A stretch of 64,000 bases of DNA from a bacterium (GCA_023512255.1 JAILZY010000010.1:2246-66245), one strand, 5' to 3'; positions 7,988 to 42,430 are shown, numbered from the stretch's first letter. A program made the numbers and translations. Notes: generated from the sequence alone by a model not told the origin.

Positions 7988-7990
7988 AAA

Positions 7991-8139
7991 GGGGAAAACC
8001 CTTTTGAAAAAGGGTTTTCCCCTTGTAACCCCTTTCCTAAAACTTTAATAACTATAGTTATTAAAGTTTTAGGAGGATGGTTTGGAAGGAACCCTTTTTC
8101 AAAAGGGTTCCTTCCAAAGAATAAGGGTTCCTTCCAAAA
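7991..8139. repeat. MITE/REP-like composite palindromic element, copy 2 (complete: P1, P2, P3 and an extra half-site)
   Basis: P1 ggggaaaacccttttgaaaaagggttttcccc (7991-8022). P2 cctaaaactttaataactatagttattaaagttttagg (8036-8073). P3 ggaaggaaccctttttcaaaagggttccttcc (8084-8115). Extra gggttccttccaaaaa. Sits immediately after the treS stop. Confidence 0.8.
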
Positions 8140-8157
8140 ATATAGTGGAGATTAGAT

Positions 8158-19958: not shown

Positions 19959-20360
19959 TCAATTTCTCTGGAATATGCCAGAGGCAAAATATCGGTTTTG
20001 GCCTAGAACCTTGGCTACCATAATTTTTAACATCTCAATGTTCAGTGGCTTAGTAATATAATCAAAGGCTCCATCGTGCATAGCCTTGAGATAGGTTTCT
20101 AGCTCGCCAAATCCAGTCATGATAATGAACTGGATATCAGGGTGAAGACTTTTTACCTCGCGCAGCAGCTCTAGTCCTCCCATGCAGGGCATGTTGATGT
20201 CGGTAATGATTAAATCAGGGGTAATCTCACGGACAATCTGCAGGGCTTCGCTTCCATTTTCAGCCACCATCACCTCATATCCCTCATCGGCCAGGATATC
20301 CTGCATAATGCTGCACATATTGGCTTCATCGTCAACAATCAAGATTCGCTTGGTATCCAT
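19959..20360 (-). CDS. Single-domain response regulator receiver (CheY-like)
   Basis: ILIVDDEANMCSIMQDIL...DLIITDINMPCMGGLELLREVK...FDYITKP is a REC domain of 133 aa. Confidence 0.8.
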   Translation of the reverse strand: MDTKRILIVDDEANMCSIMQDILADEGYEVMVAENGSEALQIVREITPDLIITDINMPCMGGLELLREVKSLHPDIQFIIMTGFGELETYLKAMHDGAFDYITKPLNIEMLKIMVAKVLGQNRYFASGIFQRN

Positions 20361-20800
20361 AACGTTAGCCCCTTTGCATTAAGTAAGAATGTAATAGGTA
20401 ATTGGTGGATTTCGCGTCTTTCCCAGTTTTCTTGATTTAAGAAAAGCAAATTGGATGCCAGGATTTTTGAGAGATCAAAAGAGGATGGTTTCCTATATAA
20501 GTCTTTGAAATATAATATTAATAACTCTTAACGCCAGATCTTAAGATCAGGTGAAATTTCGCACAACTCTGACCAAATGTTTATCAATTCGCTCAATCAT
20601 CTATATTACACACTACTAACAGGTCTTTTCGCTAATAAAGTGCACAATAAGGACGAAACAAGGTCCGCTCCTACAATTAGCTTATCTGCCCCTACAATTT
20701 AACGTAATTGATATCCTGATAGCGTAATTTATTCGCTGCGCAACTTGTGTTAAGTACTTAGCAAAAGAACCTCTAAAACACCCTGCTGGTTAGGGGAGGT

Positions 20801-21021: not shown

Positions 21022-24000
21022 TCAATGACGATTTGAACTCAATGATGAATAAAGTGATTTATAGAGCCAGTTTGCCCAAAGGTCGTTTGGAGTCCCTGAT
21101 AATGAGAAATTTGAGAGCCCAGGATAAGAGTTTGACAAGTTGTACAGGCCGCTATTAGCGTCATATAACCAGTTGGATAGCCAGTTTGATAGGTTGCTGT
21201 AAGGAGATAGGGAGCTAGTTGATGACCACAAGAAGCTGTACGATGGCCACGAGCTTAAGCTATACGATGGCCACGAGCTTAAGCTGTACGATGGCCACGA
21301 GCTCAAATCATACGAAGCTGGCCACCAGCTTGAGCTATAGGCTGTTCGCCAGTCTGCATCATACAACGACCACCAGTTTGAGCTATACCAAGGCCAGCTC
21401 AAGGCGGGGTAAATCGGCTGAGTGGTAGGAGTAGTAGGGGTAGAAGGAGTAGACGGAGTGGAAGGAGTAGACGGAGGAGAAGAGGGGCCGGCAGGAGCGG
21501 CCTGAGTTTTGAAAGAGCTGGTTCTAGCCGCACTCAGCCGATTGCCGGAAATATCTGTCGCTCCCTCATCAATCTTGATCTGATAAGTAGTGTTTGGGGC
21601 TAGCTTTGACTTTGGGGCCACAAAGGTAATCGAGGTCAGGTCCGGCGATAGCTTGACTGTGAAGTTTGGATCATCCGGGCTGATGGTAACGTTAGCCAGC
21701 AAAGAGGCCCAATCCATCGGCTCACTGAAGGTAACAGTCAGCTCCTGTGATAAGCTGACCTCGGTGGCATTGGGATTGGGCGTAATATTGACCACGATCG
21801 GAGGCGTAATATCTAACCTGCTGACCCCGCTATCTGTGCCAAACCATAAGTTTCCATAGGCATCCTGCTGAATGCACCTTATCTGATCAGTCTGTGAAGA
21901 GGATGGAGTTGTAAGATTAGGAAAGCTTCTCCAGAAATTCCAATCAGTGGTAGCCAAGACCCCAGCATCAGTAGCAAACCAGTACCGCTCGCCCGGATAG
22001 TTTTGGCCAGCTAGGGAATAGATCTCATTGACCGCGCCGTCCAGCGGGGCAGCTATCTTCGACCATCGGCCATTTTGATATCGATACGCGCCTTCTCCGG
22101 TAGCTACCCAAAGGGTGTTTTCCACCGGGTCAAAGGTGAGCGAGTTAATGGTTAGCCCATAGGCGATAAAGGGGAAGAAAGATCTATCCTGGGTTGAGTT
22201 ATAAATCAGTTTACCGGCTGCATTAAATTTATAGATATCCCCCCAGATGGTAGCCAACCAGATATTGCCTTTATCGTCCGGGGCCGCGGCCTTAACCCAA
22301 TTATCGCTTAGACCTGAATTGATGTCGAACACAACTTGCCACTGCTGATCGTACAGCTTGAGGAGGCCATGATTTTGGGTGGCTACCCACACGCCACCGT
22401 TAGGATCAATCGAAAGATCATGAATCGGATCATCAGGCAGCCCGTTTTCTCCCCTGGGGAAGAACTTGACCACTGCCCCCTTGGCTGGATCAAACTTGAC
22501 CACCCCGCTTCCGCCGCTACTGCTGCCGTCTTGTGGCTGAGTGCAGAGCCACAGATACCCTTGCCGATCCACAGCCAGGCGGGTAATGAAATTACTGGGC
22601 AGGCCGTGTTGTACGGTATATGGGTGGCTCATCCAGTCGGTCCAAAAATCAGGCTCTTGTGAATTACCTTGAGTCTTGGGAGCATAGGTGAATAACCCAG
22701 CTCCCAGGGTGGCTATCCAGAGTCTGCCGCTATTGTCCAAGGCAAGATCAGATACTGGCTTATTGATCTGAAAATGGGTCCAGCCCTGATTACATATCAT
22801 GTAGCCGAAATTAGCCTCCAGGCTGTTTGGGGATGCTGCTTGGTCTTTAGCAGTTATTTTAACGAAAATCCACTGATTGTTTTTAAAGGGAATAGCTGGA
22901 GTGTAGGAGATAGTGTATCCCTGCGCATCGGCAGCAGTAATGATTGCTTTGGCGGTTACATCAACTCCATTCACTATAAGTCGCAAGGAGCTTGGATCTA
23001 CTCCTGTTTCAAAATCGCTGACCGTATAGGTAAAGGTAGCCTTGGCCGGGATACAGGATTGGTTAGGAGGGGTAGAGCTGGCTATGAATGGCTTGCAGGA
23101 GTCCTCAGTATAGAGGAAATAGCTGCGTTCTGTCCTATGGCCAGCCTGATCGCTGACCTCAATCCTGATCGGGATAATGGTCGAGCACTCAAAAGGCGTC
23201 TTAGGTTGGTAGCTTAGGGTAAGCCCCTGGGGAGTGTCAGAAATGGTAGCTGCCTCGGTAACGTTTTGCCCATCGACGAAAAACTGGATAGAGGACCTGT
23301 CAAGTTCAGCGAAAAGAGCCTTGATATTCAAAGTAATTTTTGGGCTAGTCGGCACATTCACAGAATTAGGTGCTGGATTTATGGCCTCGATGATAATGGG
23401 CTTGAGAGCCTGGCTGTCTCCTCCAGCAGGTAAGGCTTCACCATTGGCCGCACTACTGCCACCACCAGGGGGGGGGAGGACATTGCTGCCGCCGCTAGCC
23501 GAGCTATCGGATGAGGCGGGAGCACCACCACTAGCGCCACTTCCGCCAGCCGGAAGATCACCGGCTGGTGCGCCGCCGCCAGATCCTGGGCTGCCGCTAT
23601 CAGAGCCTGTTATATTCATCTGGTAGACCTTGGGGATAAATTGGGCAGCCTGATTAAAAGAGATAGCCATTCCATTGCTCAGGGCATCTTTAGTATTATA
23701 GGAATACTGTCTGGCTATCTGATCGTGATACTTTAGGCCGACTGTGGCCCAAGCCCCACGGCTTGAGCGCGTGCTCCCCGTATCCACATCTTTATACTGG
23801 AAGACAATCTCGCCGCTTTCCTCATACAGGATGGCCTCGAAGGTAACGGTATCTGAGCTAATTTCGCCGCTGTAGTGGCGCATGGGAATCTCACGCCACT
23901 CGACAATCAGCCGGGCTGGTTTATTGGCCCTATCGACGAGGTAGCAGATGGTACCTGCGGCCGAGGGGTCAAGATCGGTCCACAGGGGAGCAATAATATC

Positions 24001-24381
24001 ACTGGGATTTCCGGCACGGGCCTTGTTAGGATCGAGCAAATCAGCCAGCGGTTCATTTCCCCACTTGGTAGCATCGTTATTGCCGAAGGTGATATAACCG
24101 TTCGAGGAGATGGTAATTCGAGTCAGCGGCTCCCCGAAGAAATAAAATCGAAATCCAAGGTTTTCAAGATCAATTGATTGACAATCATCATCTCCTAAGG
24201 GCAGAATAACTTTTGCTGGCTGTGACCATACCTCTATCCATTCATATGGATATGGGTTGCTGCCTGCCACTGCTGCCGCCGCAGACTGCACTCCGATTGA
24301 GGAACATCCTAGGGGCAAGCTCCAAAAGAATAGAGTTAAGAGTATGAAACAACAGATATTTTTTAATAATCTAACCTTCAT
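21022..24381 (-). CDS. Large secreted protein: signal peptide, Gly/Ser/Pro linker, Ig-like domains, two-component-regulator-type beta-propeller repeats, PT-rich linker, and a Trp/Tyr/Ser-rich low-complexity C-terminal tail
   Basis: N-terminus MKVRLLKNICCFILLTLFFWSLPLGCSS. Propeller blades LWIATLGAGLFTY, GYLWLCTQ, GGVWVATQNHGLLKL, GNIWLATIWGDIYKF, LWVATGEGAYRY, YWFATDAGVLAT, NLWFGTDSGVSRL. Linker PSTPSTPSTPSTPTTPTT. Tail ...SSWPSYSLSSWPSYSLSSWPSYS... Confidence 0.7.
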   Translation of the reverse strand: MKVRLLKNICCFILLTLFFWSLPLGCSSIGVQSAAAAVAGSNPYPYEWIEVWSQPAKVILPLGDDDCQSIDLENLGFRFYFFGEPLTRITISSNGYITFGNNDATKWGNEPLADLLDPNKARAGNPSDIIAPLWTDLDPSAAGTICYLVDRANKPARLIVEWREIPMRHYSGEISSDTVTFEAILYEESGEIVFQYKDVDTGSTRSSRGAWATVGLKYHDQIARQYSYNTKDALSNGMAISFNQAAQFIPKVYQMNITGSDSGSPGSGGGAPAGDLPAGGSGASGGAPASSDSSASGGSNVLPPPGGGSSAANGEALPAGGDSQALKPIIIEAINPAPNSVNVPTSPKITLNIKALFAELDRSSIQFFVDGQNVTEAATISDTPQGLTLSYQPKTPFECSTIIPIRIEVSDQAGHRTERSYFLYTEDSCKPFIASSTPPNQSCIPAKATFTYTVSDFETGVDPSSLRLIVNGVDVTAKAIITAADAQGYTISYTPAIPFKNNQWIFVKITAKDQAASPNSLEANFGYMICNQGWTHFQINKPVSDLALDNSGRLWIATLGAGLFTYAPKTQGNSQEPDFWTDWMSHPYTVQHGLPSNFITRLAVDRQGYLWLCTQPQDGSSSGGSGVVKFDPAKGAVVKFFPRGENGLPDDPIHDLSIDPNGGVWVATQNHGLLKLYDQQWQVVFDINSGLSDNWVKAAAPDDKGNIWLATIWGDIYKFNAAGKLIYNSTQDRSFFPFIAYGLTINSLTFDPVENTLWVATGEGAYRYQNGRWSKIAAPLDGAVNEIYSLAGQNYPGERYWFATDAGVLATTDWNFWRSFPNLTTPSSSQTDQIRCIQQDAYGNLWFGTDSGVSRLDITPPIVVNITPNPNATEVSLSQELTVTFSEPMDWASLLANVTISPDDPNFTVKLSPDLTSITFVAPKSKLAPNTTYQIKIDEGATDISGNRLSAARTSSFKTQAAPAGPSSPPSTPSTPSTPSTPTTPTTQPIYPALSWPWYSSNWWSLYDADWRTAYSSSWWPASYDLSSWPSYSLSSWPSYSLSSWPSYSFLWSSTSSLSPYSNLSNWLSNWLYDANSGLYNLSNSYPGLSNFSLSGTPNDLWANWLYKSLYSSLSSNRH
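21221..21340. repeat. 24-bp tandem repeat inside the CDS (gatggccacgagcttaagctatac x3 plus degenerate copies), encoding SWPSYSLS units
   Basis: Units at 21242-21265, 21266-21289 and 21290-21313, with degenerate flanks. Confidence 0.8.
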
Positions 24382-24694: not shown

Positions 24695-26965
24695 TTAGAA
24701 TTGATCATGACAAGCCCGGCACATGTTACTGCCCGGTGCTTCCGAATAATTATCCTGAACGAGCAATTGGCCATGTTTGCCTTTCTGTCCTGGAGCGGGA
24801 CGTGGCTCTCCGGTAATGGTTCCATCCCAGGCGGTTGCGGCTGCATGGACATTATGGCAGGTCAGACACAGCACACCATCTGTAGCTGTATTGTTTCCAG
24901 CAGTAATCCCCAGCGGGGAGCCGCTCTTTCCGCCATAAAATTGTTTTGGAAATGCCGTGCAGGTATTGCGTCCATTGGGAACCTTATCAGCTCCAACCGG
25001 ATGAGTCGTCCCCTGAGCCATTGGGTCAGGATTAGTTGCCGTGCAGTGGCATTGCTCGCAGTAGCCATTAGCCTCGTACGGGGAGGCCTTGTCATTTTCG
25101 CTCAACCGATACAAGTAAGGCGGTTTGGTATTGATATGGACATCATGGCAGGTGCCGCAGAAGATCTGTCCATCGACTGTGCCGTAATCATCCATGACTC
25201 CGCCTGCTGAACCAGGCTTGCCATCGGCTTTTAGGAATTTTGGAACACCAACACCTCCGGCGGAAATTATATTCTCGCGGGTATTGAAGCTGACCGGTTT
25301 GCAGGCAAAACGGTGACTTTGCCGACCGGTTGTATTCAGGAGAGAGCCGTTTTTCTCATAACTGCCGACAATATTAGAATTACCATGACAGCCGTAGCAC
25401 ATGGCTTCATAGCGGTCAAGAGGATCGGGTCTTAAGGCAATGTCTCCCTGGCTTCCCCAATTCAGTTCTTTGGCTGGAACCCTCATCAGGGCGTCAATAT
25501 CAGCGCGCAGAGGAGACACAACCTTCATGTCTCTTGGATCATCCTTGTCATTGGAATGGATAAAATGGCAGAACATACAGCCGCCGCATTTAACCACCTT
25601 TTCTCCTCTAGCAGATGTGGCCTTGAAGGTTCTGGTAACCCGGTTCTTCGGATCGGTTCTGGTTTTAAAATGCAGCCCGCCATTGGCTTCAAGCATTGCC
25701 CGGCTTTTCGGATGCTTAGGATCGTTATGGCAATATTCGCACAGGGCAGTATCATCATCTTTAAAAGATGCGTAACGCAGGAAGCTCGGATTGCCCTCTA
25801 TCTCAGAGGTATGGGCTCCGTGGCAAGAGGTGCAGCCGAAGATCTGCTGATCGAAAGAAGCAGAGGAACCATCTGCGTAGGAGCCGTCTAGTTTAAAAAT
25901 AAGACCATTCCCCGGTAGTTTTCCTTCATGGCATCCAGAGACTCCGCAGGAGGTCTTAGCCCACCGCTGGCCCAGTGGGTGGTGAGCACGGTTTGCTTGC
26001 AATTTTGGAGCATTTGGCCAAGTAGTAGTTGACAGGTGGCAGGAGGTACACTTTTGTGATTCATAGATCACACTTGAAGCCCCGGCATTCCTTAATACTG
26101 TCTTGAATCCTGGGTCGGCTGTTCCAAAGGTGAAGACTCCCAGCGGTTCCAGCCTATCGATGAATATCAAAGCATCATTTTCAGGATTTTGAGTATCATG
26201 ATATCCATCATGGGGACGGTGGCAGGCTTCACACTGAGGATCGGTCGCTTCACCAGAGTGGATATGGACGAGGGGCCTACCATTAATGTCTTTGGCCTTG
26301 CTAGCTTTTGGGTGGCATTGGCGGCAGAATTGCCTTCGGTCATGAGTTTCTCCCGCACTGGCAGTTGTTGAATTCAGCCGCAGATAATCACCATGCCCTG
26401 ATTCATCCTTGTTTGGCTGCTTGTGGGGATTGTGGCAGGAGCCGCAATAGAAACCCTCGGTTTTTGAGAAGGGAAAGCCGATAACCTCAGCCTCTCTGCT
26501 TCCATCTCCTTCGGTGGTGCTGATATAGCTGGTTCCTCCATCTGCATTGGGTTGAAATCTGGCCCCCATGACATGGTTGGCACTGCCTCCCAAGAAAACA
26601 TTACCATTGGCATTATTCAGATCACTGAATCTGCCTCCATATTGGCCGGTTCCCTTCATCCGCAACCCAGATTCAATCTGGGGAAAATCTTTATTACCCT
26701 GATAGTGGCAGCTGGCACACAGGTCTTTGACCGTTGTCTGCTTCCCCTGGACTTCTCCTCGTGCCCAGATTCTGGCCCCTTTTCCAGCGTGAGGGATGTG
26801 GCAGTTGGCGCAAACCTGCTTGGTTGATCCTGAGACCTCACACAGGTGCCCGTTGTAGGGTGTTTGCTTTGATCCATCGACTGCGTAAGCTGTGGGGGAA
26901 CAGCAGAACAAGATAAATAGACAAATTCCGAAAAAAGATAGTCTCGCTTTTAGTCTTTTATTCAT
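24695..26965 (-). CDS. Multiheme c-type cytochrome (about 14 CxxCH plus one possible CX4CH), secreted
   Basis: Start chosen at MNKRLKARLSFFGICLFILFCCSPTAYA (signal peptide, GAGAGGGG RBS). The track ORF extends 27 codons further upstream. Heme motifs CANCH, CASCH, CGSCH, CRQCH, CEACH, CTSCH, (CGVSGCH), CTSCH, CEYCH, CMFCH, CYGCH, CGTCH, CEQCH, CLTCH, CRACH. Confidence 0.85.
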   Translation of the reverse strand: MNKRLKARLSFFGICLFILFCCSPTAYAVDGSKQTPYNGHLCEVSGSTKQVCANCHIPHAGKGARIWARGEVQGKQTTVKDLCASCHYQGNKDFPQIESGLRMKGTGQYGGRFSDLNNANGNVFLGGSANHVMGARFQPNADGGTSYISTTEGDGSREAEVIGFPFSKTEGFYCGSCHNPHKQPNKDESGHGDYLRLNSTTASAGETHDRRQFCRQCHPKASKAKDINGRPLVHIHSGEATDPQCEACHRPHDGYHDTQNPENDALIFIDRLEPLGVFTFGTADPGFKTVLRNAGASSVIYESQKCTSCHLSTTTWPNAPKLQANRAHHPLGQRWAKTSCGVSGCHEGKLPGNGLIFKLDGSYADGSSASFDQQIFGCTSCHGAHTSEIEGNPSFLRYASFKDDDTALCEYCHNDPKHPKSRAMLEANGGLHFKTRTDPKNRVTRTFKATSARGEKVVKCGGCMFCHFIHSNDKDDPRDMKVVSPLRADIDALMRVPAKELNWGSQGDIALRPDPLDRYEAMCYGCHGNSNIVGSYEKNGSLLNTTGRQSHRFACKPVSFNTRENIISAGGVGVPKFLKADGKPGSAGGVMDDYGTVDGQIFCGTCHDVHINTKPPYLYRLSENDKASPYEANGYCEQCHCTATNPDPMAQGTTHPVGADKVPNGRNTCTAFPKQFYGGKSGSPLGITAGNNTATDGVLCLTCHNVHAAATAWDGTITGEPRPAPGQKGKHGQLLVQDNYSEAPGSNMCRACHDQF

Positions 26966-27208
26966 CTTTCGATCCCCTCTCTTCCATAAGCACTCTCTCC
27001 CAACCAAGGTTAAATATTGTTTATCACTCGAACCTAACATTAACAAACCACTTTATCACTTTTAAAATCACTTTTAAAATTCTAAAAATTGATCGCTGGT
27101 TAAGTTATCATTATCCCACTCCTTCCCTTAATCCTTATAGAATTATATAGCCGTTTAATATAGCCGTTTATCAATCGCTACCTAAGCTAACGCTTATTTA
27201 AGGCTTAC

Positions 27209-28291
27209 TTATTTAAGATTTGTATCCTTAATGATATAAATCTGATTGACTTCCTGATCAGTCAGGTAAATGGTGTCATCACGGCCAATGAATATTCCAG
27301 TTGGCATCTTGAAATATATTTTGCCCTCTTTTCCATCCAGCCATTTGATTGCACCAATAAATTTTCCATCCGGCCCAAATACCTGGATACACTTCAGTAG
27401 AAGATCGGTTACATAAGCCCGGCCTCGACGGTCGACACCGACTCCTGTCAGCCGAGAGAACTGACCAGCTCTTTCCCCGCTTTCACCTCCAATCTGAAAA
27501 AGCTCAGCTCCATCCGGCTGAAAAACCCGAACCCGGGCGCACATACCTTCAGGAACGAAGATCCGATTCTGATCATCAAAACAGACTATCCCAGGCGTAC
27601 AAAACATACCCTGTTCCTTGCCTTTAAAATAGCGTAAAAATTTGCCATGCAAGTCATAAATCCAGATATGGCCGTTTGAGGCATCACTGACATAAAGCTG
27701 ATTACTCTTTTTATCAATGGCAATACAGCCGGGCGAGGCGTTTTGATATTTGTCATCTGGGGATAGAGCTGATTTAGAGGAAAATTCTTCTACAAACTCA
27801 CCTCGAGGGGTAAAAACCAGGATTTTTTCCCGCTTGACATCACAGATGTATACTTTGTCTTGGCTGTCTATGGCAATGCTGAACGGCTGGAGAAACTGCC
27901 CTGGCCCTTTTCCTTCCTTGCCGAATTTGGATAAGAATTTACCATCACGGCTATAAATCAATACCTCGGAGGGGATATTTTTTAGGACATAGAGATCTCC
28001 TTGGGAATTCTGGACCATATGAATTATAATGCCGCTGCTTTTGCCGCCCACCGCGGCAGATGGTCCGGAATCGCCCATGGTCCCGATCAGCTTAACCGTC
28101 CTGTTTTCAACCTCCTGCTCCACGGTCTGCTCATCGGTGCGGTCGCTTGCTTTTTGTTTAGTCGCTTGCTCGCCGGCTACAGCCTGCTCTTTGGCTTCAG
28201 CCTTGGCCAGCGTAGGCCGTGGAGCAAGCAAAAAGTGGAGCAGCAGACCACTCAGCAGGAAAATCCATAACATGGATGAAGATTTTTTCAT
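27209..28291 (-). CDS. NHL-repeat beta-propeller protein, secreted
   Basis: Signal peptide MKKSSSMLWIFLLSGLLLHFLLAPRPTLA. NHL blades LTGVGVDRRGRAYVTDLLLKCIQVFGPDGKF, GIFIGRDDTIYLTDQEVNQIYII and others. Confidence 0.75.
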   Translation of the reverse strand: MKKSSSMLWIFLLSGLLLHFLLAPRPTLAKAEAKEQAVAGEQATKQKASDRTDEQTVEQEVENRTVKLIGTMGDSGPSAAVGGKSSGIIIHMVQNSQGDLYVLKNIPSEVLIYSRDGKFLSKFGKEGKGPGQFLQPFSIAIDSQDKVYICDVKREKILVFTPRGEFVEEFSSKSALSPDDKYQNASPGCIAIDKKSNQLYVSDASNGHIWIYDLHGKFLRYFKGKEQGMFCTPGIVCFDDQNRIFVPEGMCARVRVFQPDGAELFQIGGESGERAGQFSRLTGVGVDRRGRAYVTDLLLKCIQVFGPDGKFIGAIKWLDGKEGKIYFKMPTGIFIGRDDTIYLTDQEVNQIYIIKDTNLK

Positions 28292-28481
28292 AATTTTTAT
28301 CCCCCTCGAGGTTTTTCCTTTAATCGTAAATCATAAATCATAAATTTCCATTAATCGTAAAGATGGTTTAAGCCGATTTTTAGATTAGAAGCAGAGCGCC
28401 TTTTTGCCCTTGCTGTTTAACCATCACTATTTTTTTACACGTTTCTTTTTACACGAGCTTACACAGCATAACCTACAAAAA

Positions 28482-28497
28482 TGCAAAAGAAGTACCA
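28482..28497 (-). promoter_or_regulatory. Candidate sigma-54 (-24/-12) promoter for the NHL-1/cytochrome-1 module: TGGTAC-ttctt-TTGCa
   Basis: Reverse complement of 28483-28497 gives GG-N10-GC with a TTGCA -12 box, about 190 nt upstream of the NHL-1 start. One deviation from the TGGCAC consensus. Confidence 0.45.
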
Positions 28498-28755
28498 TCC
28501 ATATTTTTAAAGAAGTACCATACATCTTTTTATAGTGTTAAGGCAGATGTCATGTTAAGCCCTAGGAAGCCAATGATCATTTATTTACAAATGATATACT
28601 GTTACATTATAATACGAAAGAAAACCCAATATCAACATCCAGGTTGCGAGGTTGCCGACAAAAAGAAAAGAAAGGGGTTTGTGGCTATTAGACATATATC
28701 GGTCATTTCAACAATAGAATATTACCTGAAAATAGAAATTACCTGGCTGGGACTC

Positions 28756-30816
28756 CTAAAGCATCCCATAATGGCAATTAAAACATAATCCGCTGCCATG
28801 CTCATACACTTGGCCTTGAAAGCTTCCACCAATGGCATTATCAATAATTAAAAGTTTTCCGGCATTTAATCTTCCGCTTTGACTGATACCATCATGCCTA
28901 GTTACGGCTGAATGAACGCTGTGGCAGGACTGACAGGTGATATCTCCCTCCAGGGTATCATTTGATGTTTGCCCGCCAAACCCACCACTGAAGCCTGAGA
29001 TAACATAGCCTTGAAAATTATCGCCAAATTGAACCGATTTTTGCTTCAGAGGCCTGTTGACCGGATGGGAGGATTCGCACTCGGCAGATGCGGGTTTGCT
29101 GGTATGGCAGGCGATGCACAGGGCAGAGCCAGAATAGTCCCGGGTTGCGTTCGGCTCTCGAAGGTAAGCTGTGCGCCGATCAATAAATTTCTCGGAGGAG
29201 CGGATAGGGGGCGAGTCCTGCCGGTGGACATTGTGGCAGCTTCCGCACCAGATTCTCCCTTTCTCGACTCCGTAATCATTCTGACACTTTTTTTCCCAAC
29301 CATCGGAAACAACCTGTTTCCCATCCCCAAAAGGATTAATAATATTGATATTTTTGGAAGGCACTACATTAAACCGATGAGAGAAGTAATGGTCCTCTAC
29401 ATTATCGAGCAGCAGAGCATTTTTTTCATTGTCCGTATCTTTTGCTCCTACGATTTCGGCTCGTGAGTGGCAGCCGTAGCAGGCATCCTCGTAATCACGA
29501 CTATCCTGATCCTGCAATTTGTCAGCCCACTGAAGATTTACTGGTGCAATCCGCATGATCACATCCACCGAAGCAGAGGAATTTTCTTGGTTAGCTCGCT
29601 CATCATCTGTCTGATATAGAGCCGCAGGATCATTCGGTGATTTATGGATAGAGTGGCAGAATAGGCACTCATTTTCATTCTGGGGCGGCCCGATCGTGCG
29701 CCCGACCTGATAATGTCCGCGGCCTGGAGTGGATTCAAGATCACCGACCGCTTTATCAGAATGGCAGGCAGCACAAAAGGCCCCGGGATGAGCCGGATCG
29801 TAGTTGCTGATAATTTGCGGGTTGAGATACTTATCATTAGTGCCCTGATGAGGATCATGGCAGGATTTGCAATACAGCTCTCCCTGAGGGGAGAGTGGGC
29901 CAGATGCGGTCTTCTGATGTCCTTCGACTGTAGCCTCAGCTCCTTTCCCCATCGGGTGGTGCTCATACCGGACCAGGCAATCATCGCCATTCAGCGGAGC
30001 GTTTAGCGCCCCCTCACCCCCCCCTTGAGCTCGATGGCAGCCGTAGCAGCTAGCTGCATAAGAGTCAGCCACAGGATCGGAAAATTCGCTAACATTAGGG
30101 ACTGCTCTGAAGGGGATGCTGCTTTCAGTCTTAATGATCTTTTTCCCTCGATTGGGGGAATAATGCGGAGTATGACAGTCAAAGCAGCCATCTTTGGTTC
30201 CATGCCCCTTGGCCTTACCCTGAACCAGGGGAGCGTGGCATTGGATACAAAATTCATAATGCTTTTGTGAGGTAGTTTTGATTAAACCAGGCACTGACTC
30301 CCGCAGGTAATCGCCCCCCTCAAAGGGATCGGTATGAGGATTATGACAGCTTCCACAATAAAATCCATCTCCTCCCTCCTTAGGCCGCAGGGGAAAGGTT
30401 TCACCCCACTCTTTGCGGGTTACCGCCGGACCATTAATTAGAGCATTGGCTCCCATGGGATGATCATTACCTTCCTCAATGAATATATAATCCCTAGCTC
30501 CGAAAAGATGAGTACCATGACAGGTGCTGCACAGTCTTTTTGTTCCGGTAAACTCACCACTTGCCGCCCTAGCCCACAGAAGGTCATCAGCGGCATGGTG
30601 AGGCAGATGACAGGCTCCGCACGGATCTTCCGGTACACACCAGGCATGAGGCCCATTCAGCGCCCAGGCGAACTGAAAGCCGAAGACGACCAGCAGGAGG
30701 GAAATAATAAGGCCTATTATCCCTTTCGAAATACCTATACCGATTATCCACCGGAGAGCGATTCTCAGAAAACTACTTCGATACATCGAATACTGAAACA
30801 ACTTTTGTCTCCGCAT
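28756..30816 (-). CDS. Multiheme c-type cytochrome (14 CxxCH) with an N-terminal membrane anchor or signal
   Basis: CGACH, CSTCH, CGSCH, CIQCH, CFDCH, CYGCH, CKSCH, CAACH, CLFCH, CYGCH, CGSCH, CIACH, CQSCH, CFNCH. Hydrophobic N-terminus IIGLIISLLLVVFGFQFAWA. Alternative start MYRSS at 30786. The 5' end overlaps the 3' end of NHL-2 by 14-44 nt. Confidence 0.85.
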   Translation of the reverse strand: MRRQKLFQYSMYRSSFLRIALRWIIGIGISKGIIGLIISLLLVVFGFQFAWALNGPHAWCVPEDPCGACHLPHHAADDLLWARAASGEFTGTKRLCSTCHGTHLFGARDYIFIEEGNDHPMGANALINGPAVTRKEWGETFPLRPKEGGDGFYCGSCHNPHTDPFEGGDYLRESVPGLIKTTSQKHYEFCIQCHAPLVQGKAKGHGTKDGCFDCHTPHYSPNRGKKIIKTESSIPFRAVPNVSEFSDPVADSYAASCYGCHRAQGGGEGALNAPLNGDDCLVRYEHHPMGKGAEATVEGHQKTASGPLSPQGELYCKSCHDPHQGTNDKYLNPQIISNYDPAHPGAFCAACHSDKAVGDLESTPGRGHYQVGRTIGPPQNENECLFCHSIHKSPNDPAALYQTDDERANQENSSASVDVIMRIAPVNLQWADKLQDQDSRDYEDACYGCHSRAEIVGAKDTDNEKNALLLDNVEDHYFSHRFNVVPSKNINIINPFGDGKQVVSDGWEKKCQNDYGVEKGRIWCGSCHNVHRQDSPPIRSSEKFIDRRTAYLREPNATRDYSGSALCIACHTSKPASAECESSHPVNRPLKQKSVQFGDNFQGYVISGFSGGFGGQTSNDTLEGDITCQSCHSVHSAVTRHDGISQSGRLNAGKLLIIDNAIGGSFQGQVYEHGSGLCFNCHYGML

Positions 30817-31783
30817 TAACTACATAGATTTTATTGTTTGTCCAGGCCAGACCGAGAGGCTGGCTGAACAGCCTGGGATTGCTCGACTGGCGCATAGAGT
30901 CAAGATATTCCCCCTTCTGGTTGAATACCTGGACCGAATTTGAGATAAAATCAGAAACATAAATCCGATCTCTGGCATCAATAGCCAGGCCATAGGGTCG
31001 AATAAATTCTCCCTCTTTGGTGCCGTTTTTGCCAAAAGCATAGCGAAATTTAAAATCAGGACTAAAAGACTGGACCCTGAAATTACCCGCATCAACGACA
31101 TAAATATTTCCTCGGCTATCGAAAGCAATATGAGCCGGACCGCTCAATCCTCCGTCTCCTCCGCCGGCAGTGCCGAAGGTGGCTTTTAATTCTCCAGAGA
31201 GTGTGTAGACTCCGATCTGGTGATTGCAGGCATCAGAGATATATAGCCGATTATCGAATGGATTGTAAGCGATAAAAGGGGCACAAAGATCGCGGCCTTT
31301 CTCTGGCTGGTGAAGGGGAAATTGCCCTTTAAGTTCGCCATCTGAGCTATAAATCAAAATCTTGTCTGTGGCCAGATCCGATACGTACACCCGATCCTGC
31401 CTGTCAATCGCTATCCCTGACGGCTCGCTCAGGTTTACTCCTTTGCCTTTTCCCTTGCCCTGCTTGGTCGGCTCTTGGCCAAAAGCAAACAGTAGCCGAC
31501 CCGAAGGATCAAATACCCGAATCTCATTGGTCAGCGAGCAGACAACAAAGAGGCGACCTTTGGAATCAAGGGCCAGCGCCGTGGGCTTGCCAGATGCTGG
31601 GCCTTGAAAACCAAGCTGAATCTGCCGCTCAAGCTGATAAAAGCTTTCTTTGCCGGCAGGTTGGCCAGCAGCCAGAGCTGAGCTGCTCAAGAGGAAGAGG
31701 GGAAAAAGCAGCGTCGCCAAGACAGATGCCAGAAAACCTTTTGGATTCAAAATCGGCTGGACAGTCATTATAATAGTCATCAT
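30773..31783 (-). CDS. NHL-repeat beta-propeller protein, secreted
   Basis: Signal peptide; blades GIAIDRQDRVYVSDLATDKILIYSSDGEL, NRLYISDACNHQIGVYTLSGEL, GNIYVVDAGNFRVQSFSPD, DRIYVSDFISNSVQVFNQKGEY, NKIYVVNAETKVVSVFDV. Confidence 0.75.
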   Translation of the reverse strand: MMTIIMTVQPILNPKGFLASVLATLLFPLFLLSSSALAAGQPAGKESFYQLERQIQLGFQGPASGKPTALALDSKGRLFVVCSLTNEIRVFDPSGRLLFAFGQEPTKQGKGKGKGVNLSEPSGIAIDRQDRVYVSDLATDKILIYSSDGELKGQFPLHQPEKGRDLCAPFIAYNPFDNRLYISDACNHQIGVYTLSGELKATFGTAGGGDGGLSGPAHIAFDSRGNIYVVDAGNFRVQSFSPDFKFRYAFGKNGTKEGEFIRPYGLAIDARDRIYVSDFISNSVQVFNQKGEYLDSMRQSSNPRLFSQPLGLAWTNNKIYVVNAETKVVSVFDVSK

Positions 31784-31937
31784 AATATAAAATATTTTGA
31801 TAATATAAAATATTCGATAAATATTCGATAAAATATTGCCCCCGCCACTGAGGGTTAAAATTCAAGCTTTCTGCTTGCTGAGGTCATAATTTTTCATCTT
31901 GAAAAACATCAATTATCTTCATTTTGAAGCTATAGTA

Positions 31938-31953
31938 AGCAAAAGATGTGCCA
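31938..31953 (-). promoter_or_regulatory. Candidate sigma-54 (-24/-12) promoter for the NHL-2/cytochrome-2 module: TGGCAC-atctt-TTGCt
   Basis: Reverse complement of 31939-31953 is a perfect TGGCAC-N5-TTGC match, about 145 nt upstream of the NHL-2 start codon and immediately downstream of the sigma-54 activator gene. Confidence 0.5.
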
Positions 31954-32173
31954 TAACCAAAACAAGATGCTATAACCAGCAGTAAACAAGAAATGTACCA
32001 TAACAAATAAGACCTTACCCTAAGACAATTGGCCGGGGAGAGTGTCTCTTAGGGTTAATCCCTGATACCTTGTATTACACATATTATGAAAAAAAAATAT
32101 AGATTTAGTCAATACTAATCTTGCTCTTTTTAGGGGAGAGCAAAAACAAGCCACACAGCTTTAGCACTTGTTT

Positions 32174-33727
32174 TTAGCTTGGCTCGTCAAGGCCATATCG
32201 TTTGATTTTCTTGTGTAAACCCTGCCTGGTAATCCCAAGCAAAGAGGCTGCTTTGTTCTTATTGCCCTGGGCTTCTTGAAGCGCTTTTCGGATAAGTCTA
32301 ATTTCCAAAGCCTTAACCTGCTCAGGGAGTGAATAATCAACGGCATCTTTCTCATGATCTTGCAGACTCTTGCTGAAATTTTGCAGCTCCCGTGAGCATT
32401 TGTCAATGGTAATTCGCTCCCCCTCAGGAGTTAGCGCAACCAGATGTTCTACCTCCCGCAGCAATTGGCGAACATTGCCCGGCCATGAATACTCCTCAAA
32501 CAGCCGCAAGACTTCAGGCGCAAAGCCAGCTACCCTTTTTTTGAATCTACGGCTTACTCGATCCAGAAAGGCTAAGGCCATAGTTACAATATCCTCCCGC
32601 CGCTCCCTGAGAGGCGGAATGTGGATCTCGACTGAAAACAGACGGAAGAAAAGATCCTCCCTGAAACGCCCCAAGGCCACCTCCTGGCGCAGGTCCTTGT
32701 TGGTTGAGCTGATGATCCGCAGATTATAGCGCATTACCTTGTTGCTTCCCAGCCGACAGCCTTCCCCCTCCTGAATGGCCCGCAAGAACTTAGGCTGAAT
32801 AGCCAGAGGCATATCAGCTACCTCATCCAGAAACAGTGTTCCGCCGTCAGCCTCCTCAAATCGACCCTTGCGGCTGGTAACCGCACCGGTGAACGCCCCT
32901 TTTTCATAGCCAAAGAATTCGCTTTCCATAAGATTTTCGAGAATCGAGGCACAGTTTACAGCCACAAAGGGTTTGTCGCGGCGGTCACTGCCTTCATGGA
33001 TCATTCGAGCAATAAGCTCCTTGCCGGTCCCGTGCTCGCCGTGGATGAAGACATTGACCGGAGTTTTGCTGATCATCCGCACCTCATCCATGATATTTCT
33101 CATAATCGGGCTTTCGACAATAAAGGGTATATCCCGAAAATAATTTCTTTCGAACCACTCGACCTCGCAGTTTAACTGGCTAGAGATTTGCAGAATCTCT
33201 CGGCTTAAAAGGATGCCCTCGATAGAGGTTGCAAGGAAAGAGGCGATTTCCTGCAATTGCTCCACATCTTCTGCGCTAAATCGCCCATCTCCCTTCTTGT
33301 TTAGTACCTCGATGGCTCCGATTACACCACGGCCAGTCAGACTTCTGATCGGAGCACAGATTAGACTGTGGGTAACAAAGCCGGTCTTGGCATCAATTTC
33401 AGTATGGAAACCGTGTCGCTTGTCCAGGTCATGCTCTACAATGCATTGATCGGTAGAGATAACCTTGCCGACAACACTTTCATCTTTGGGAGGCTCAATC
33501 TTCATTCCTTCTAGACCAGTGCCGAACATCGACCAGATTGTCCCCTTTTGTGCATCAGCCACAAAAACAGTGCAGCGTTCGGCATCCATAATTTTGGGCA
33601 GAATGGCTACGTAAAATTTCAGCAGGGCCTCATAATCGCCGACTGTCCAGGATTGGGTAACCTGCTCCAGACGAAATCTAAGGTTGGCAAGTCGCTGATG
33701 AATCATTTCAGGTTCATTGGCAGCCAC
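32174..33727 (-). CDS. Sigma-54-dependent transcriptional activator (bacterial enhancer-binding protein) with an N-terminal GAF sensor domain and a C-terminal Fis-type HTH
   Basis: GAF region ([17 protein letters not shown]..., ...[24 protein letters not shown]). AAA+ sigma-54 interaction domain ([25 protein letters not shown] motif, ...LFFRL..). [24 protein letters not shown]. No REC domain. Confidence 0.85.
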
Positions 33728-34143: not shown

Positions 34144-34160
34144 TGGCATGTGGTTTGCAT
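34144..34160 (+). promoter_or_regulatory. Candidate sigma-54 (-24/-12) promoter facing the giant gene: TGGCAT-gtggt-TTGCAT
   Basis: GG-N10-GC spacing with a TTGCA -12 box. Divergent from the sigma-54 activator gene. About 500 nt upstream of the giant CDS and about 20 nt upstream of a small ORF. Confidence 0.45.
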
Positions 34161-34674: not shown

Positions 34675-37600
34675 GTGAGGTCAAAGAGCAAAGAATTTTT
34701 TTCAGATCAGAAAGGAGTGCTAAGAATCATGTCTAAGGTAAAAGACAACTGGTGGGCCAAGTTAGTAAGCTCATCCTGTCTTGTGCTCTTTACCATAATA
34801 GCCCTTAGTGTTGGGTGTATGGGGATTTGGGTTAGCAAGACAGAGGCAGGAGGGGTAAACCTTTCGCTGAGTGGACAGGCGATTTATCCTCAGCCCGTGG
34901 ATCAGGAAGTGCCGGAAATTTACGGGACCAAGGTCGTCTGGATGCAGCAGGGGAATGATTATTATTACAAAGTATTCCTTGGCGATCTTGAGACCGGCAC
35001 CAGCAGGCAGCTTGGGAGCAGCCCGGCTGCGGAAAAGTATCCGGCCATCTGGGAGAATAAGGTTATCTGGATGGATTATCGAAGCATCATGGATGATCCA
35101 ACAGTAGAAAACAAATATGCATACATTTTCAAATACTATGATATGTATGGATATGACCTGGAGAAAAATCAGGAATTTCCCATTTGTACCAATCCAGAAT
35201 GGCAGGGATATGGAGATATCCAGAAGGATCGGGTTGTGTATGCTGATATGCGTACCGGCAGCCCGGATATCTTCCTCTATGACCTGAGAAGCAGTCAGGA
35301 ATACGCCATATGTATTCATCCCGCCTGGCAGGGAAATCCGGTCATTTATGATAATTATGTCATCTGGATGGACGAGCGCTCAGGCAATTATGATATCTAC
35401 GGCCTTGATCTAGCGACCGGTAAGGAATTTCCCATTTGCACCGCGGCTGATAACCAGGCTTATCCAGCTATCAGCGGCACAAAAGTGGTCTGGCAAGACA
35501 AAAGAAGTGGCAACGACGATATCTACCTCTATGATCTGGCCACAAAACAGGAAATCGCTATCTGTACCCATCCAGGAAAGCAGCAGGTGCCTGATATTTG
35601 CGGCAATATCATTGTCTGGCAGGATGACCGTAATGGGAATTGGGACATCTATGGTTATGATCTGACTACCTATCAGGAATTTCAGATTACTAACCAGAGC
35701 GGCGATGAGACCTTCCCTGCCATATCTGGTGATCGGATCGTCTGGGTGGATTCAAGGAGCGGCCACAAAAATATTTATGCGGCTACTTTGCCGTCTGGCT
35801 TTGCTCCACAAGCCAATAATCAGGTCAGAAATCGGGAGTCAATCACTGCTGCTAGCTCACTGGGTGACTCTATCACGGCCATGTCATTTGCTGCTAGCTC
35901 ACTGGCTAGCTCTATCGCCACCACGATTGCTCCGAATATCGAGATCTTAATACCCGAATTAATACCTGAAATCACCATACCCGCGATCACCTCTCCCATC
36001 ATCGAAGTGCCAAAAACCGGCCCCTCAATTATAGGCTACGAAAATAGCGGTTGTAAAAAAGAGATTACCTCTACCACCATCCGCGCTCCTGAGGAAGAGA
36101 AATTTACCTATAAGTATCAAGACAATATCCTTTATCTTTTTCATGAGAACGCCTCTTACAATTGCTGTATTGAGGAAATCGCCATCACTATGGAGGTGGT
36201 AGGAAATATCATCAATATTTATGAAGATGAAAGGCTTGAGGGAGGCGGCTGTCGATGTCTCTGCACCTATGATATAACCACTAAGATCGGCTGTCTTGAG
36301 CCTGGCACCTATGAGGTGAAATTCTTCAACAAGCAAACCGGCAAATTGCTCGGCGTGATCAAAGAGGTGGTTATTCCCCCGATTCCCTGTCTTCTTTCTG
36401 CCGCCGCACCGGTACAAAAATGCTGTCCACTTCCCTGCACCGATCCCATAAACCGCTGCTGTCCGTATGCCTCTGCTGTGCCAGAGCAAAGATGTGTGGT
36501 CTGTCCGGTGCCTTGGTGGCCATGTCCATGCAGCTATTTCGATGATATGGAGCAAGATACTTGGACATTCAGCCGAGGGATCAGCTCTTCTTCGTCCATC
36601 TCTACGCCGCTGCCACCTCCCCCAATTCAAGAGATTGATTATTCAACTGCCCAATACGTTTCACCGAAAAGATCAATCTGGGCCTATGTAGCCAGCTATC
36701 TTGAGACCGCGACCGATGCCAGTATTACTGGAGCAGGATACCGCACCCTTGGGGAAGGAGCAGAGCTTGCTACCGCTTCCAGCACCTCAGCATCCCTAGC
36801 GGCAGCAGCCAATGCCAGGGTAAGTGCTTCTCGGTCGTTTGAGCTTTGCGGCTGTGAGAATCTCAAGCTGAAGCTTTCTTACCAGATCCGCTACTCCATA
36901 AGCAAAATTAATCAATATCTCTATCGCCGCGTCGCGGTTGAGGTGATGGCTTATGATGCTGCTGGCAATCAGATGGGCAAGCGCACCTATGTCCTGTTTA
37001 GGAATCCTATCCAGGTATTGAGTCAGGAAGATATTGATATTGTGCTCCCTGCTCAGTCTGCATGGCAGACCCTGGCAAGATCCCTCCAAAAAGATATACC
37101 GATCAAATGGTGTGAGGCGAGAAAACTTCAGGTAATTTTAAAAGCCGAAGGATATTTCCCTGCTGGTCAGGGTGACTTTGTAGAAACATTCTGGGATGAT
37201 CTGGCCATTGAGGGGCAAAACTGTAATATCATCCTGCCGTGCTGTCCGCTGGCTCAGGCTGAGGTTGGGGCGGCAGATGCCCTGTGGTGTCGGCCCTGTC
37301 CTGTGGCTACGACGACAGCAGCCAGCCAGGCTCTGTGGTGCTGGCCCTGCCCGGTGGCTTCTGTTGATGCGGCAAGTGCAGATGCTCTGTGGTGTCGGCC
37401 ATGTCCCTATGAGATTCATATGCCAGATGGGACGATTAGGCGTTGCTGTCCTGTGGCTACGACGACAGCAGCCAACCAGGCTCTGTGGTGCTGGCCCTGC
37501 CCGATAGCGACTGGTGTTGAGGTCAATGTTCAGAGCTGGTGTTGTCCGCTGGCTAAGGCCGAGGTAGATACCCAGGTTTTGTGGTGTCGGCCCTGTCCTG

Positions 37601-41494: not shown

Positions 41495-42430
41495 ATGGAA
41501 CAGAAAAGGGACTGTCCCAAAACCAAAATACTCATGGTGGATGATGAGCCTACGATTGTAAGCATCTACCAGCACTTATACCAAGAAAATCTGTTCCCTT
41601 GGTTTGATTCGAGAATCACCGTATCAACAGCTAATTCAGGAGATCGGGCTTTAGATCTTCTTCAGAGAGAGCGGTTTGATTTACTGGTTACTGATTTTAA
41701 CCATCCCGGGCCAAGCGGCATCGAGTTTATCGGTGCAGTCAAAAAGATATGCCCTGAGCTACCCATTATTGTCTGCTCTGGACTAAACAGCGTAGGCGCT
41801 CGGATTAAAGAGTTATTCTCTGCCGGGGTGAAGGATTTTCTCTCAAAGCCTTTTCATATCTCCGAGCTTAGTCAGGCAATTTACCGCGTTCTAATCGAGG
41901 ATAAGACAGGCTCATTCTATATAAGGCAATGTATGGCTAGCCTCTGCGGTCATATCTCTTTTCTGCTGGCACCGAAGGCTAAATTGGAATGGGGTCTGAT
42001 ACGGCTCAGCAGACAGCCGGATTCGCTCAAGATTGAAGATTGTAGTGAGGCGCTGATACTGGGGTATAAAATTTCACCTCCGCCATATTTGGCTAAGGCG
42101 GCGGAAGTTATCGGCGATTTTCCCCTAGAGCGGTTTATTTCAGCAACCCTAGAGTGTATTCAAAGGCAAGATGTGGTAGCTTTGGATTTTCCCCCTGTTC
42201 AGATCGTTAACAAAGATGACCATCAGGCCATAACAACCATGAATCTTTCTACCTTGGCTTGCATTCCCCCTCCTCCTCAATTATCAAAGATAGATTGCAT
42301 TCATCTTTTCCCTCACTCTTTTGATTGTTCGCTGCCGGCGAACTGGAGCAATATTCTGAAAGGGGTAAAAAAAGAGCTCTCTTCCTACTTTCACCCTATT
42401 TATGGCCTCACTTATGGCCTCAGCGCATAA
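41495..42430 (+). CDS. Response-regulator receiver domain protein with an uncharacterised C-terminal domain
   Basis: REC KILMVDDEPTIVSIYQ...FDLLVTDFNHPGPSGIEFIGAVKK...PIIVCSG...SKP, then about 180 aa with no recognisable domain. Confidence 0.6.
   Translation: MEQKRDCPKTKILMVDDEPTIVSIYQHLYQENLFPWFDSRITVSTANSGDRALDLLQRERFDLLVTDFNHPGPSGIEFIGAVKKICPELPIIVCSGLNSVGARIKELFSAGVKDFLSKPFHISELSQAIYRVLIEDKTGSFYIRQCMASLCGHISFLLAPKAKLEWGLIRLSRQPDSLKIEDCSEALILGYKISPPPYLAKAAEVIGDFPLERFISATLECIQRQDVVALDFPPVQIVNKDDHQAITTMNLSTLACIPPPPQLSKIDCIHLFPHSFDCSLPANWSNILKGVKKELSSYFHPIYGLTYGLSA

Follow-up and report, generated by a model that had tools for sequence, protein, structure and literature searches.

Candidate heme wires and their proposed propeller partners in two bacterial gene pairs

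Introduction

Processes as varied as mineral respiration, corrosion, electrosynthesis and syntrophic methane oxidation are powered by large multiheme cytochromes. Propellers are encoded next to such cytochromes, but no function has been established for them, and the question is what a propeller does for its cytochrome. The stretch of bacterial DNA analyzed here (64,000 nt, GCA_023512255.1 JAILZY010000010.1:2246-66245, hereafter the window) contains an unusually clean case. Two genes coding for NHL beta-propellers (NHL2 and NHL1) and two genes coding for 14-heme c-type cytochromes (cyt2 and cyt1) are matched one to one in two cognate pairs. There are no other accessory genes, and the reading frames of one pair overlap. 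The service of a propeller to a heme wire may be addressed here with just two genes.

We lean, with moderate confidence, towards the following answer. The locus would consist of two sigma-54-controlled operons, each coding for an exported heme wire and for a dedicated non-redox propeller used in its assembly, docking or anchoring, and both would serve long-range or extracellular electron transfer.

Results

Anatomy of the four-gene block

All four genes are on the minus strand. In the order of transcription, they are:

30773..31783, minus strand: NHL2, open reading frame (ORF) of 336 amino acids (aa), putatively exported, heme-free six-bladed NHL beta-propeller, cognate partner of cyt2
28756..30816, minus strand: cyt2, 14-heme c-type cytochrome, 686 aa from the ATG
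27209..28291, minus strand: NHL1, 360 aa, putatively exported NHL/DUF5128 propeller, cognate partner of cyt1
24695..26965, minus strand: cyt1, 14-heme paralogue of cyt2, 756 aa from the ATG

Order and lengths are those of the original prediction, which was made from this DNA alone. The NHL2 stop codon (30775..30773) falls within the cyt2 reading frame, and the overlap between both genes is 44 nt if cyt2 starts at ATG 30816, 29 nt if it starts at TTG 30801 and 14 nt if it starts at ATG 30786, the same 14–44 nt range as predicted. The likely start is TTG 30801, preceded at 7 nt by a GGAG and also used in the 681-aa call on near-identical contigs. Translational coupling had been proposed for both pairs: it stands for NHL2/cyt2 and fails for NHL1/cyt1. 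The latter genes are separated by 243 nt when cyt1 is counted from its ATG, or by 162 nt from an alternative start (TTG 27046) which gives a 783-aa protein. Between cyt2 and NHL1 there is an AT-rich spacing of 464 nt.

According to a hydropathy heuristic, the four proteins are alike: one hydrophobic segment at the N-terminus, an A-x-A-like site behind it, and nothing else that would span a membrane; signal peptides had already been claimed for the two propellers. The two cytochromes are collinear, with 27% identity (E 5e-40), and agree with their earlier description as divergent paralogues with a common organisation. The two propellers are also collinear (28% identity, E 9e-34). None of the four proteins reaches any NCBIfam family cut-off. 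A lipoprotein anchor was considered for cyt1 and for the 1119-aa protein described below, and was ruled out: by eye, their N-termini do not have a canonical lipobox.

The three leaders of the block (26966..27208, 28292..28755 and 31784..32173) each contain tandem direct duplications of 10–15 nt. Examples are AAACGGCTATAT, GATTTTAAAAGTGAT, TATCGAATATTT and ATGGTACTTCTTT, each of them present twice.

The cytochromes are related to the OmcE filament subunit

Both cytochromes contain exactly 14 CXXCH motifs, the number of hemes originally given, and both match Pfam families Paired_CXXCH_1 and Cytochrome_C7. In an alignment of 29 homologues, all 14 CXXCH motifs are invariant, together with 12 additional His and 2 Met. 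These residues nearly suffice as sixth ligands for 14 hemes, and the hemes are most likely six-coordinate. The odd-numbered hemes have the form CxxCHx[P/I/V]H, as in OmcE.

A search of the PDB with cyt2 as a single sequence gives nothing significant (E 0.05 for OmcE). The relation to OmcE becomes visible only with the 29-member family profile, a single sequence being insufficient. This profile finds the OmcE filament subunit 7tfs_A with E 7.7e-15, and the alignment places residues 43–231 of the 232 of OmcE against hemes 5–8. Other matches are 9yuq_N, a 218-aa "putative multiheme cytochrome c" with 16 chains in its entry (E 4e-11), and chain A of 6r2q (333 residues, E 3e-7), which we take to be MtrA, under a different label in the record. 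The match to OmcS (6ef8) is weak, with E 7e-4.

Internal repeats are also evident. Comparison with hhalign gives a probability of 98.9% for hemes 1–4 against hemes 5–8, and of 97.8% for hemes 1–4 against hemes 9–12; when quarters of the protein are aligned, hemes 13–14 correspond to half a module. Each cytochrome is thus predicted to be a fusion of 3.5 tandem OmcE-type tetraheme modules in one chain.

Besides its 14 CXXCH motifs, cyt1 has a CX4CH motif (CGVSGCH) at residue 367 of the 783-aa ORF, which could be a fifteenth heme site. This motif is kept in close orthologues (L001 and both copies in L002; L numbers designate loci) and is lost in more distant ones.

The family is rare. We have found 21 loci in 185,579 species genomes and 17 loci in 241 million metagenome records, and full-length members amount to some 25 cluster representatives among 1.84 billion. 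The module alone, without the 14-heme architecture, is found in about 6200 cluster representatives. Relatives scale the module to 24, 28, 49 and 60 hemes: giant cytochromes built from it, with 21–60 CXXCH motifs, are present in L010 (5150..14923), L004 (12898..20634), L013, L020, L022 and L033. The largest one of the lineage has up to 3257 aa and 60 hemes.

The propellers are heme-free NHL domains

NHL2 matches the Pfam NHL family in four stretches (E 2e-26), NHL1 matches DUF5128 (E 7e-21) and NHL (E 4e-16), and DUF5128, described as "6-bladed beta-propeller", is assigned to both proteins. The AlphaFold2 model of NHL2 has a mean predicted local distance difference test score (pLDDT) of 87.8 and a predicted template modelling score (pTM) of 0.82. 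Its 24 propeller strands form six four-stranded blades, which bears out the original description as a six-bladed propeller. When this model is used in a Foldseek search, the best matches are the NHL domains of Thin, TRIM2 and TRIM71, with target-normalised template modelling scores of 0.84–0.88. A phmmer search of the PDB with the propeller sequences leads to the same proteins (NHL domains of Thin, TRIM71 and TRIM2/3, E 1e-50 to 1e-31). TRIM-type NHL domains are protein- and RNA-binding platforms. From its model, the fold of NHL2 can be confidently assigned to the classical six-bladed, protein-binding NHL domain.

There is no CXXCH heme motif in NHL1 or NHL2. In an alignment of 21 cytochrome-linked NHL proteins, invariance is limited to the Gly, Asp, Phe and Arg repeated in the blades, and does not extend to any His or Cys. 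The absence of both a heme motif and invariant His or Cys fits a structural role, not a catalytic or redox one, and residue conservation argues against a heme, metal or catalytic site in these propellers. By eye, the alignment also shows two conserved Cys common to the NHL2-type proteins, which might form a disulfide. In NHL1, the signal sequence is followed by a charged linker of about 45 residues. A family search with the NHL proteins gives 734 matches, with only about 30% identity outside the orthologues.

The pairing is conserved and cognate

Close homologues of cyt2 come almost all from metagenome-assembled genomes of unclassified "bacterium" entries. The window has near-identical counterparts in contigs L026/L027 and L029, and JGI sample 3300005573 contains a near-identical contig; on L026 and L027, protein P0046 has the same length and the same context as cyt1. 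Related loci with enough flanking sequence were classed by BLAST into NHL1 or NHL2 and cyt1 or cyt2 types. In about ten related uncultivated genomes, each NHL type is kept beside its own cytochrome type.

L001 and L002 have the gene order of the window: GAF/sigma-54 activator, NHL2, cyt2, NHL1, cyt1 and a large downstream gene, which in L002 comes after an additional, third cytochrome with 14 hemes. A sister clade (L003, L004, L007, L008, L009 and L028) has a different order: NHL1-type, a third NHL, cyt1-type (14/28 hemes), NHL2-type and cyt2-type (14/24 hemes). In all related loci with sufficient flanks, the NHL2-type gene (42–70% identity) overlaps the start of the cyt2-type gene (50–77%), by 11–29 nt between the called genes in L001–L004, L026 and L028. 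Similarly, the NHL1-type (37–74%) is always found with the cyt1-type (30–84%); both are present together in L001, L002, L003, L004, L007–L009, L019 and L028. Since the cognate typing is kept in all related loci, the two pairs would be old, and would have diverged and been inherited as pairs.

We have also sampled three distant homologues (P0073, P0120 and P0083, at loci L046, L047 and L048). In the three cases an NHL gene directly precedes a cytochrome gene, here with 18–24 hemes. Both genes overlap by 4 nt in L046, and are separated by a gap of 13 or 9 nt in L047 and L048. The cluster of P0073 is labelled Thiobacillus sp. by one source, and P0120 is labelled Desulfolithobacter sp. L046 contains two tandem NHL-cytochrome pairs. 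In L025, which belongs to Nitrospiraceae, genes for a 26-heme cytochrome, a 16-heme cytochrome and an NHL protein are consecutive.

The original prediction had suggested that the propeller is a dedicated partner of the cytochrome. Adjacency is indeed conserved and cognate in relatives down to about 40–50% identity, and the neighbourhood search which it proposed, for NHL genes beside cytochromes of more than 10 hemes, finds the arrangement again both in relatives and in all three distant homologues. As a whole, its interpretation is partly supported.

A wider cluster is shared by the distant loci L046–L048: one or two 6–8-heme cytochromes, a cytochrome b (Ni_hydr_CYTB), a 3-heme membrane protein, the NHL gene and the 18–24-heme cytochrome. 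L046 (1..16328) additionally contains the second NHL-cytochrome pair and ResB/CcsA. From its gene content, this cluster looks like a complete quinol-to-wire pathway.

Sigma-54 elements precede the propeller genes

The regulatory features of the block are:

32174..33727, minus strand: GAF-domain sigma-54-dependent activator, a bacterial enhancer-binding protein (bEBP), with Pfam domains GAF, Sigma54_activat (E 3e-65), AAA_lid_14 and HTH_8
31939..31953, minus strand: sigma-54 -24/-12 element TGGCACATCTTTTGC, about 155 nt upstream of NHL2
28483..28497, minus strand: sigma-54-like -24/-12 element TGGTACTTCTTTTGC, about 190 nt upstream of NHL1, within the 464-nt gap

The bEBP gene is directly upstream of the pairs, a position kept in L001, L002, L026 and L027. 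The element upstream of NHL2 is the sole exact TGGCAC-N5-TTGC in the window, while the one upstream of NHL1 has one mismatch to the consensus, with the right orientation and position. Both recur unchanged in L026, and exact or one-mismatch elements are found just upstream of NHL genes in L001, L002, L004, L007, L008 and L009. They are not conserved at the distant loci L046–L048. As cyt1 has no such element in front of it, its transcription together with NHL1 is probable. The bEBP is likely to be the regulator of both NHL-cytochrome operons, judging from its position and from these elements.

Scans for terminators and for sigma-70 promoters give nothing above shuffled background which might split or join operons. 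Apart from the sigma-54 element, the leaders of NHL1 and NHL2 have no long motif in common, and an Rfam scan of the window detects no RNA family. Just beyond the downstream end of the cytochrome island, a stand-alone response-regulator gene (19959..20360) is also preceded by a one-mismatch sigma-54 element (20446..20460, minus strand), which is conserved in L026.

Neighbouring genes

The domains of neighbouring genes were searched with Pfam on ORFs of at least 150 aa in the window. Two large genes flank the block:

21022..24381, minus strand: 1119-aa putatively exported protein with Ig-like Big_5 (E 2e-23) and Reg_prop propeller (E 1e-24) Pfam domains
34675..40854, plus strand: 2059-aa protein, divergent neighbour, with two Cohesin matches (E 6e-21), Dockerin_1 (E 1e-6) and PD40 repeats

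The 1119-aa protein has Reg_prop/Big_5 giants as counterparts behind the cytochromes in L001 and L003; in L026 the counterpart is a protein of matching length (1120 aa), with no recorded Pfam match. It is probably a cell-surface component of the same island, to judge from its domains and position. Within its C-terminal 170 residues or so, a Pro/Thr linker is followed by a tail of which 45% is Trp, Tyr or Ser, with repeats such as SSWPSYSL. The tail has no family match; might it serve in anchoring or in mineral binding?

The 2059-aa protein, putatively exported, contains 26 Cys-rich WCxPCP repeats and 125 Cys in total. Cohesin/dockerin giants hold its position in L001, L002 and L027; we only infer its membership in the system. 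A sigma-54-like element, TGGCATGTGGTTTGC, is located upstream of its gene at 34144..34158. The domains of these two neighbours (Big_5/Reg_prop and cohesin/dockerin) suggest a cell-surface setting.

Other genes of the window include a S-adenosylmethionine synthetase (11024..12268, plus strand) of archaeal type (Pfam PF01941, E 2e-143), where sister-clade locus L004 has the bacterial type. A trehalose synthase/maltokinase-like fusion is followed by a branching-enzyme-like gene (4646..10164, plus strand). Finally, a sulfatase is fused to a long TPR array (42402..45536, plus strand).

Discussion

A proposed role for the pairs

In the reading which we favour, there would be two operons, NHL2-cyt2 and NHL1-cyt1, the latter possibly extending into the gene for the 1119-aa surface protein, and the adjacent GAF-domain bEBP would probably turn on both. 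Each operon would supply two Sec-exported proteins, a cytochrome and a propeller. The cytochrome would be rod-like, with its 14 hemes most likely all six-coordinate; the presence of 3.5 tandem modules in one chain would make it a covalently concatenated heme wire. By a rough estimate extrapolated from OmcE, its heme chain would be some 12 nm long. While hemes are being attached to the cognate cytochrome, or afterwards, the propeller would bind to it and assist in its assembly, docking or anchoring, either in the cell envelope or at the surface. Electrons would then move along the cytochrome over nanometre distances, to or from an extracellular or periplasm-spanning partner. The propeller is most likely a non-redox structural partner of its cognate cytochrome. 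We infer the physical binding of both proteins, the type of help given, the final location and the electron donor or acceptor.

There are precedents for such a role. For cytochrome clusters, it has been proposed that the NHL or propeller proteins encoded in them contribute to stability or assembly (PMC5815863, PMC5539420, PMC9070056). OscD of the omcS companion operon, linked to nanowire morphology as cited in PMC13194489, is likewise a precedent.

Several observations weigh against this reading. The export signals of all four proteins come from hydropathy alone, and translational coupling is limited to the NHL2/cyt2 pair. The AlphaFold2 model of cyt2, built from the 29-sequence alignment, is unusable (pLDDT 38, pTM 0.30), so the heme geometry is drawn from homology only. 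No fusion of an NHL domain with a cytochrome is present among the best 120 homologues of either protein. The giant cytochromes in L010, L013, L020, L022 and L033 (21–60 hemes) have no nearby NHL gene, and the propeller is therefore not required by every cytochrome of this module. Finally, Pfam detects no porin, peptidyl-prolyl isomerase or secretion gene among the scanned ORFs of the window, although divergent barrels can escape Pfam and three ORFs have no match at all.

Alternative explanations

This last result makes a periplasmic role a serious rival: the propeller would be a transient maturation or export chaperone, comparable to the factors for folding and morphology in the omcS companion cluster, and not a stable subunit, and the cytochromes alone would act as periplasmic conduits or electron stores. 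All four proteins have only Sec-type N-termini, which, with the lack of porin and secretion genes in the scanned window, would suit this explanation. The comparable propeller and cytochromes of SEEP-SRB1/Desulfuromonadales are predicted to be periplasmic (PMC5539420). Moreover, LptC and an LptD_N-domain (LptA-like) gene are found on a sister-clade contig, which shows that this lineage has an outer membrane. We nevertheless consider a mere chaperone unlikely. The conserved flanking genes are typical of surface or extracellular proteins (Big_5/Reg_prop, cohesin/dockerin), the module is that of an extracellular filament, OmcE, and tight coupling with cognate co-divergence suits a stoichiometric partner at least equally well.

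The propeller might also be the functional head of the system, a binder of substrate, metal or mineral, or a cofactor enzyme, which trades electrons with the 14-heme wire. Quinohemoproteins, cytochrome cd1 and hydrazine synthase contain propeller domains which work like this. Six-bladed propellers frequently have a metal or cofactor site at their centre, and weak Pfam similarity to SGL, arylesterase, lactonase and Vgb lyase is found here. Designed propellers derived from NHL (Pizza), which are also among the phmmer and Foldseek matches, bind metal ions and nanocrystals, and the idea has been raised in PMC12016550. However, these enzyme-family matches are far weaker than those to NHL, mostly below or near the cut-offs, and no curated NCBIfam enzyme family is reached. 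Across NHL types there is no invariant His, Cys, Glu or other residue outside the blade pattern, and the nearest relatives, both by sequence and by fold, are TRIM-type protein- and RNA-binding domains, not enzymes. A functional head is in our opinion quite unlikely. It is highly improbable that the adjacency has no functional meaning, both kinds of genes being abundant enough to become neighbours by chance. The NHL family is certainly very large (the 734 matches at about 30% identity beyond orthologues), and several paralogous giant cytochromes have no NHL neighbour. But order, orientation, cognate type and stop/start overlap are kept down to 42–50% identity, the pairing recurs in further loci, of which two bear the labels Thiobacillus or Desulfolithobacter, and the promoter element precedes the NHL gene, not the cytochrome gene.

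Comparison with known systems

Operons with a six-bladed propeller and large cytochromes have already been reported (PMC5539420, PMC5815863, bioRxiv 10.1101/2022.05.06.490989, PMC9070056). Skennerton et al. (2017) described a conserved core formed by a six-bladed propeller, 16-heme and 26-heme cytochromes and a prolyl isomerase in SEEP-SRB1/Desulfuromonadales, with the propeller and cytochromes predicted to be periplasmic (PMC5539420). As in our locus, an exported six-bladed propeller is encoded with very large multiheme cytochromes, and the core is conserved across lineages linked to extracellular electron transfer (PMC5539420). There are also clear differences: one propeller in that core, two propeller/14-heme pairs here; 16- and 26-heme cytochromes there, two 14-heme cytochromes of a separate, rare family here; and an isomerase gene there, with none among the scanned ORFs of the window.

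The nanowire cytochromes of Geobacter are another close comparison: the module is homologous to OmcE and weakly to OmcS, and there too an NHL or propeller-like protein is encoded beside the wire cytochrome. GSU2505, the NHL protein adjoining omcS, has been suggested to be necessary for OmcS assembly or expression (PMC9070056), and a Geoalkalibacter locus contains an OmcE homologue and two NHL proteins (PMC12016550). On the other hand, OmcE and OmcS are 4- and 6-heme subunits which polymerise non-covalently, whereas 3.5 modules are joined here in one chain. The channel-like and isomerase (OscH-like) genes of the osc cluster are absent here; its propellers and ours are compared by description.

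In Desulfovibrio ferrophilus IS5, NHL-repeat six-bladed propellers are also found alongside multiheme cytochromes. Two clusters, DFE_0448-0451 and DFE_0461-0465, contain the propellers DFE_0451 and DFE_0463, which are co-expressed with multiheme cytochromes and have been detected in extracellular fractions (PMC5815863, PMC8322314). In the proposal of Deng et al. (2018), the NHL propellers offer sites for protein-protein interaction and thereby give stability to the outer-membrane cytochrome complex of this species (PMC5815863). Our locus differs in its cytochrome sets, gene order and lineage, and neither one-to-one pairs nor start/stop overlaps are described there. In the Uet cluster of Candidatus Tenderia electrophaga and Gallionella, the NHL proteins UetH and UetI precede the undecaheme UetJ (bioRxiv 10.1101/2022.05.06.490989; PMC10734462). 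The NHL gene directly before a large cytochrome is a common feature, and cytochrome maturation genes come next in Uet, as in L046. In contrast, we find in the window neither the beta-barrel porin of Uet nor its triheme c7 cytochromes, cupredoxin and isomerase.

A porin-cytochrome conduit of the Mtr, Pcc or Uet type is defined by its porin, and no porin-like Pfam family is present in the cluster or in the window. We considered assigning the locus to the Uet, Mtr/Pcc or SEEP-SRB1 core operons and rejected this, as their defining genes are absent. Measured by heme counts, isomerase and porin, it does not qualify for any of the named clusters, yet it is clearly of the same general kind. What is new here is the cognate one-to-one pairing, the conserved NHL2/cyt2 overlap, the apparent sigma-54 control and the predicted 3.5-module OmcE-like architecture.

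Significance

It is possible, although we put it forward tentatively and with some doubt, that a propeller gene followed by a wire gene forms a general, so far unrecognised two-part unit for long-range electron transfer across bacterial phyla: a heme-free six-bladed NHL protein, then a large cytochrome of OmcE-type modules. Each propeller would be the specific assembly or anchoring subunit of its own covalently concatenated nanowire. The architecture of the cytochromes suggests that nanowire-type heme chains may be produced by gene fusion as well as by polymerisation. If such a general unit exists, lineages like this uncultivated one could use propeller-wire pairs in place of porin-cytochrome conduits; the module itself scales up to proteins with 24–60 hemes.

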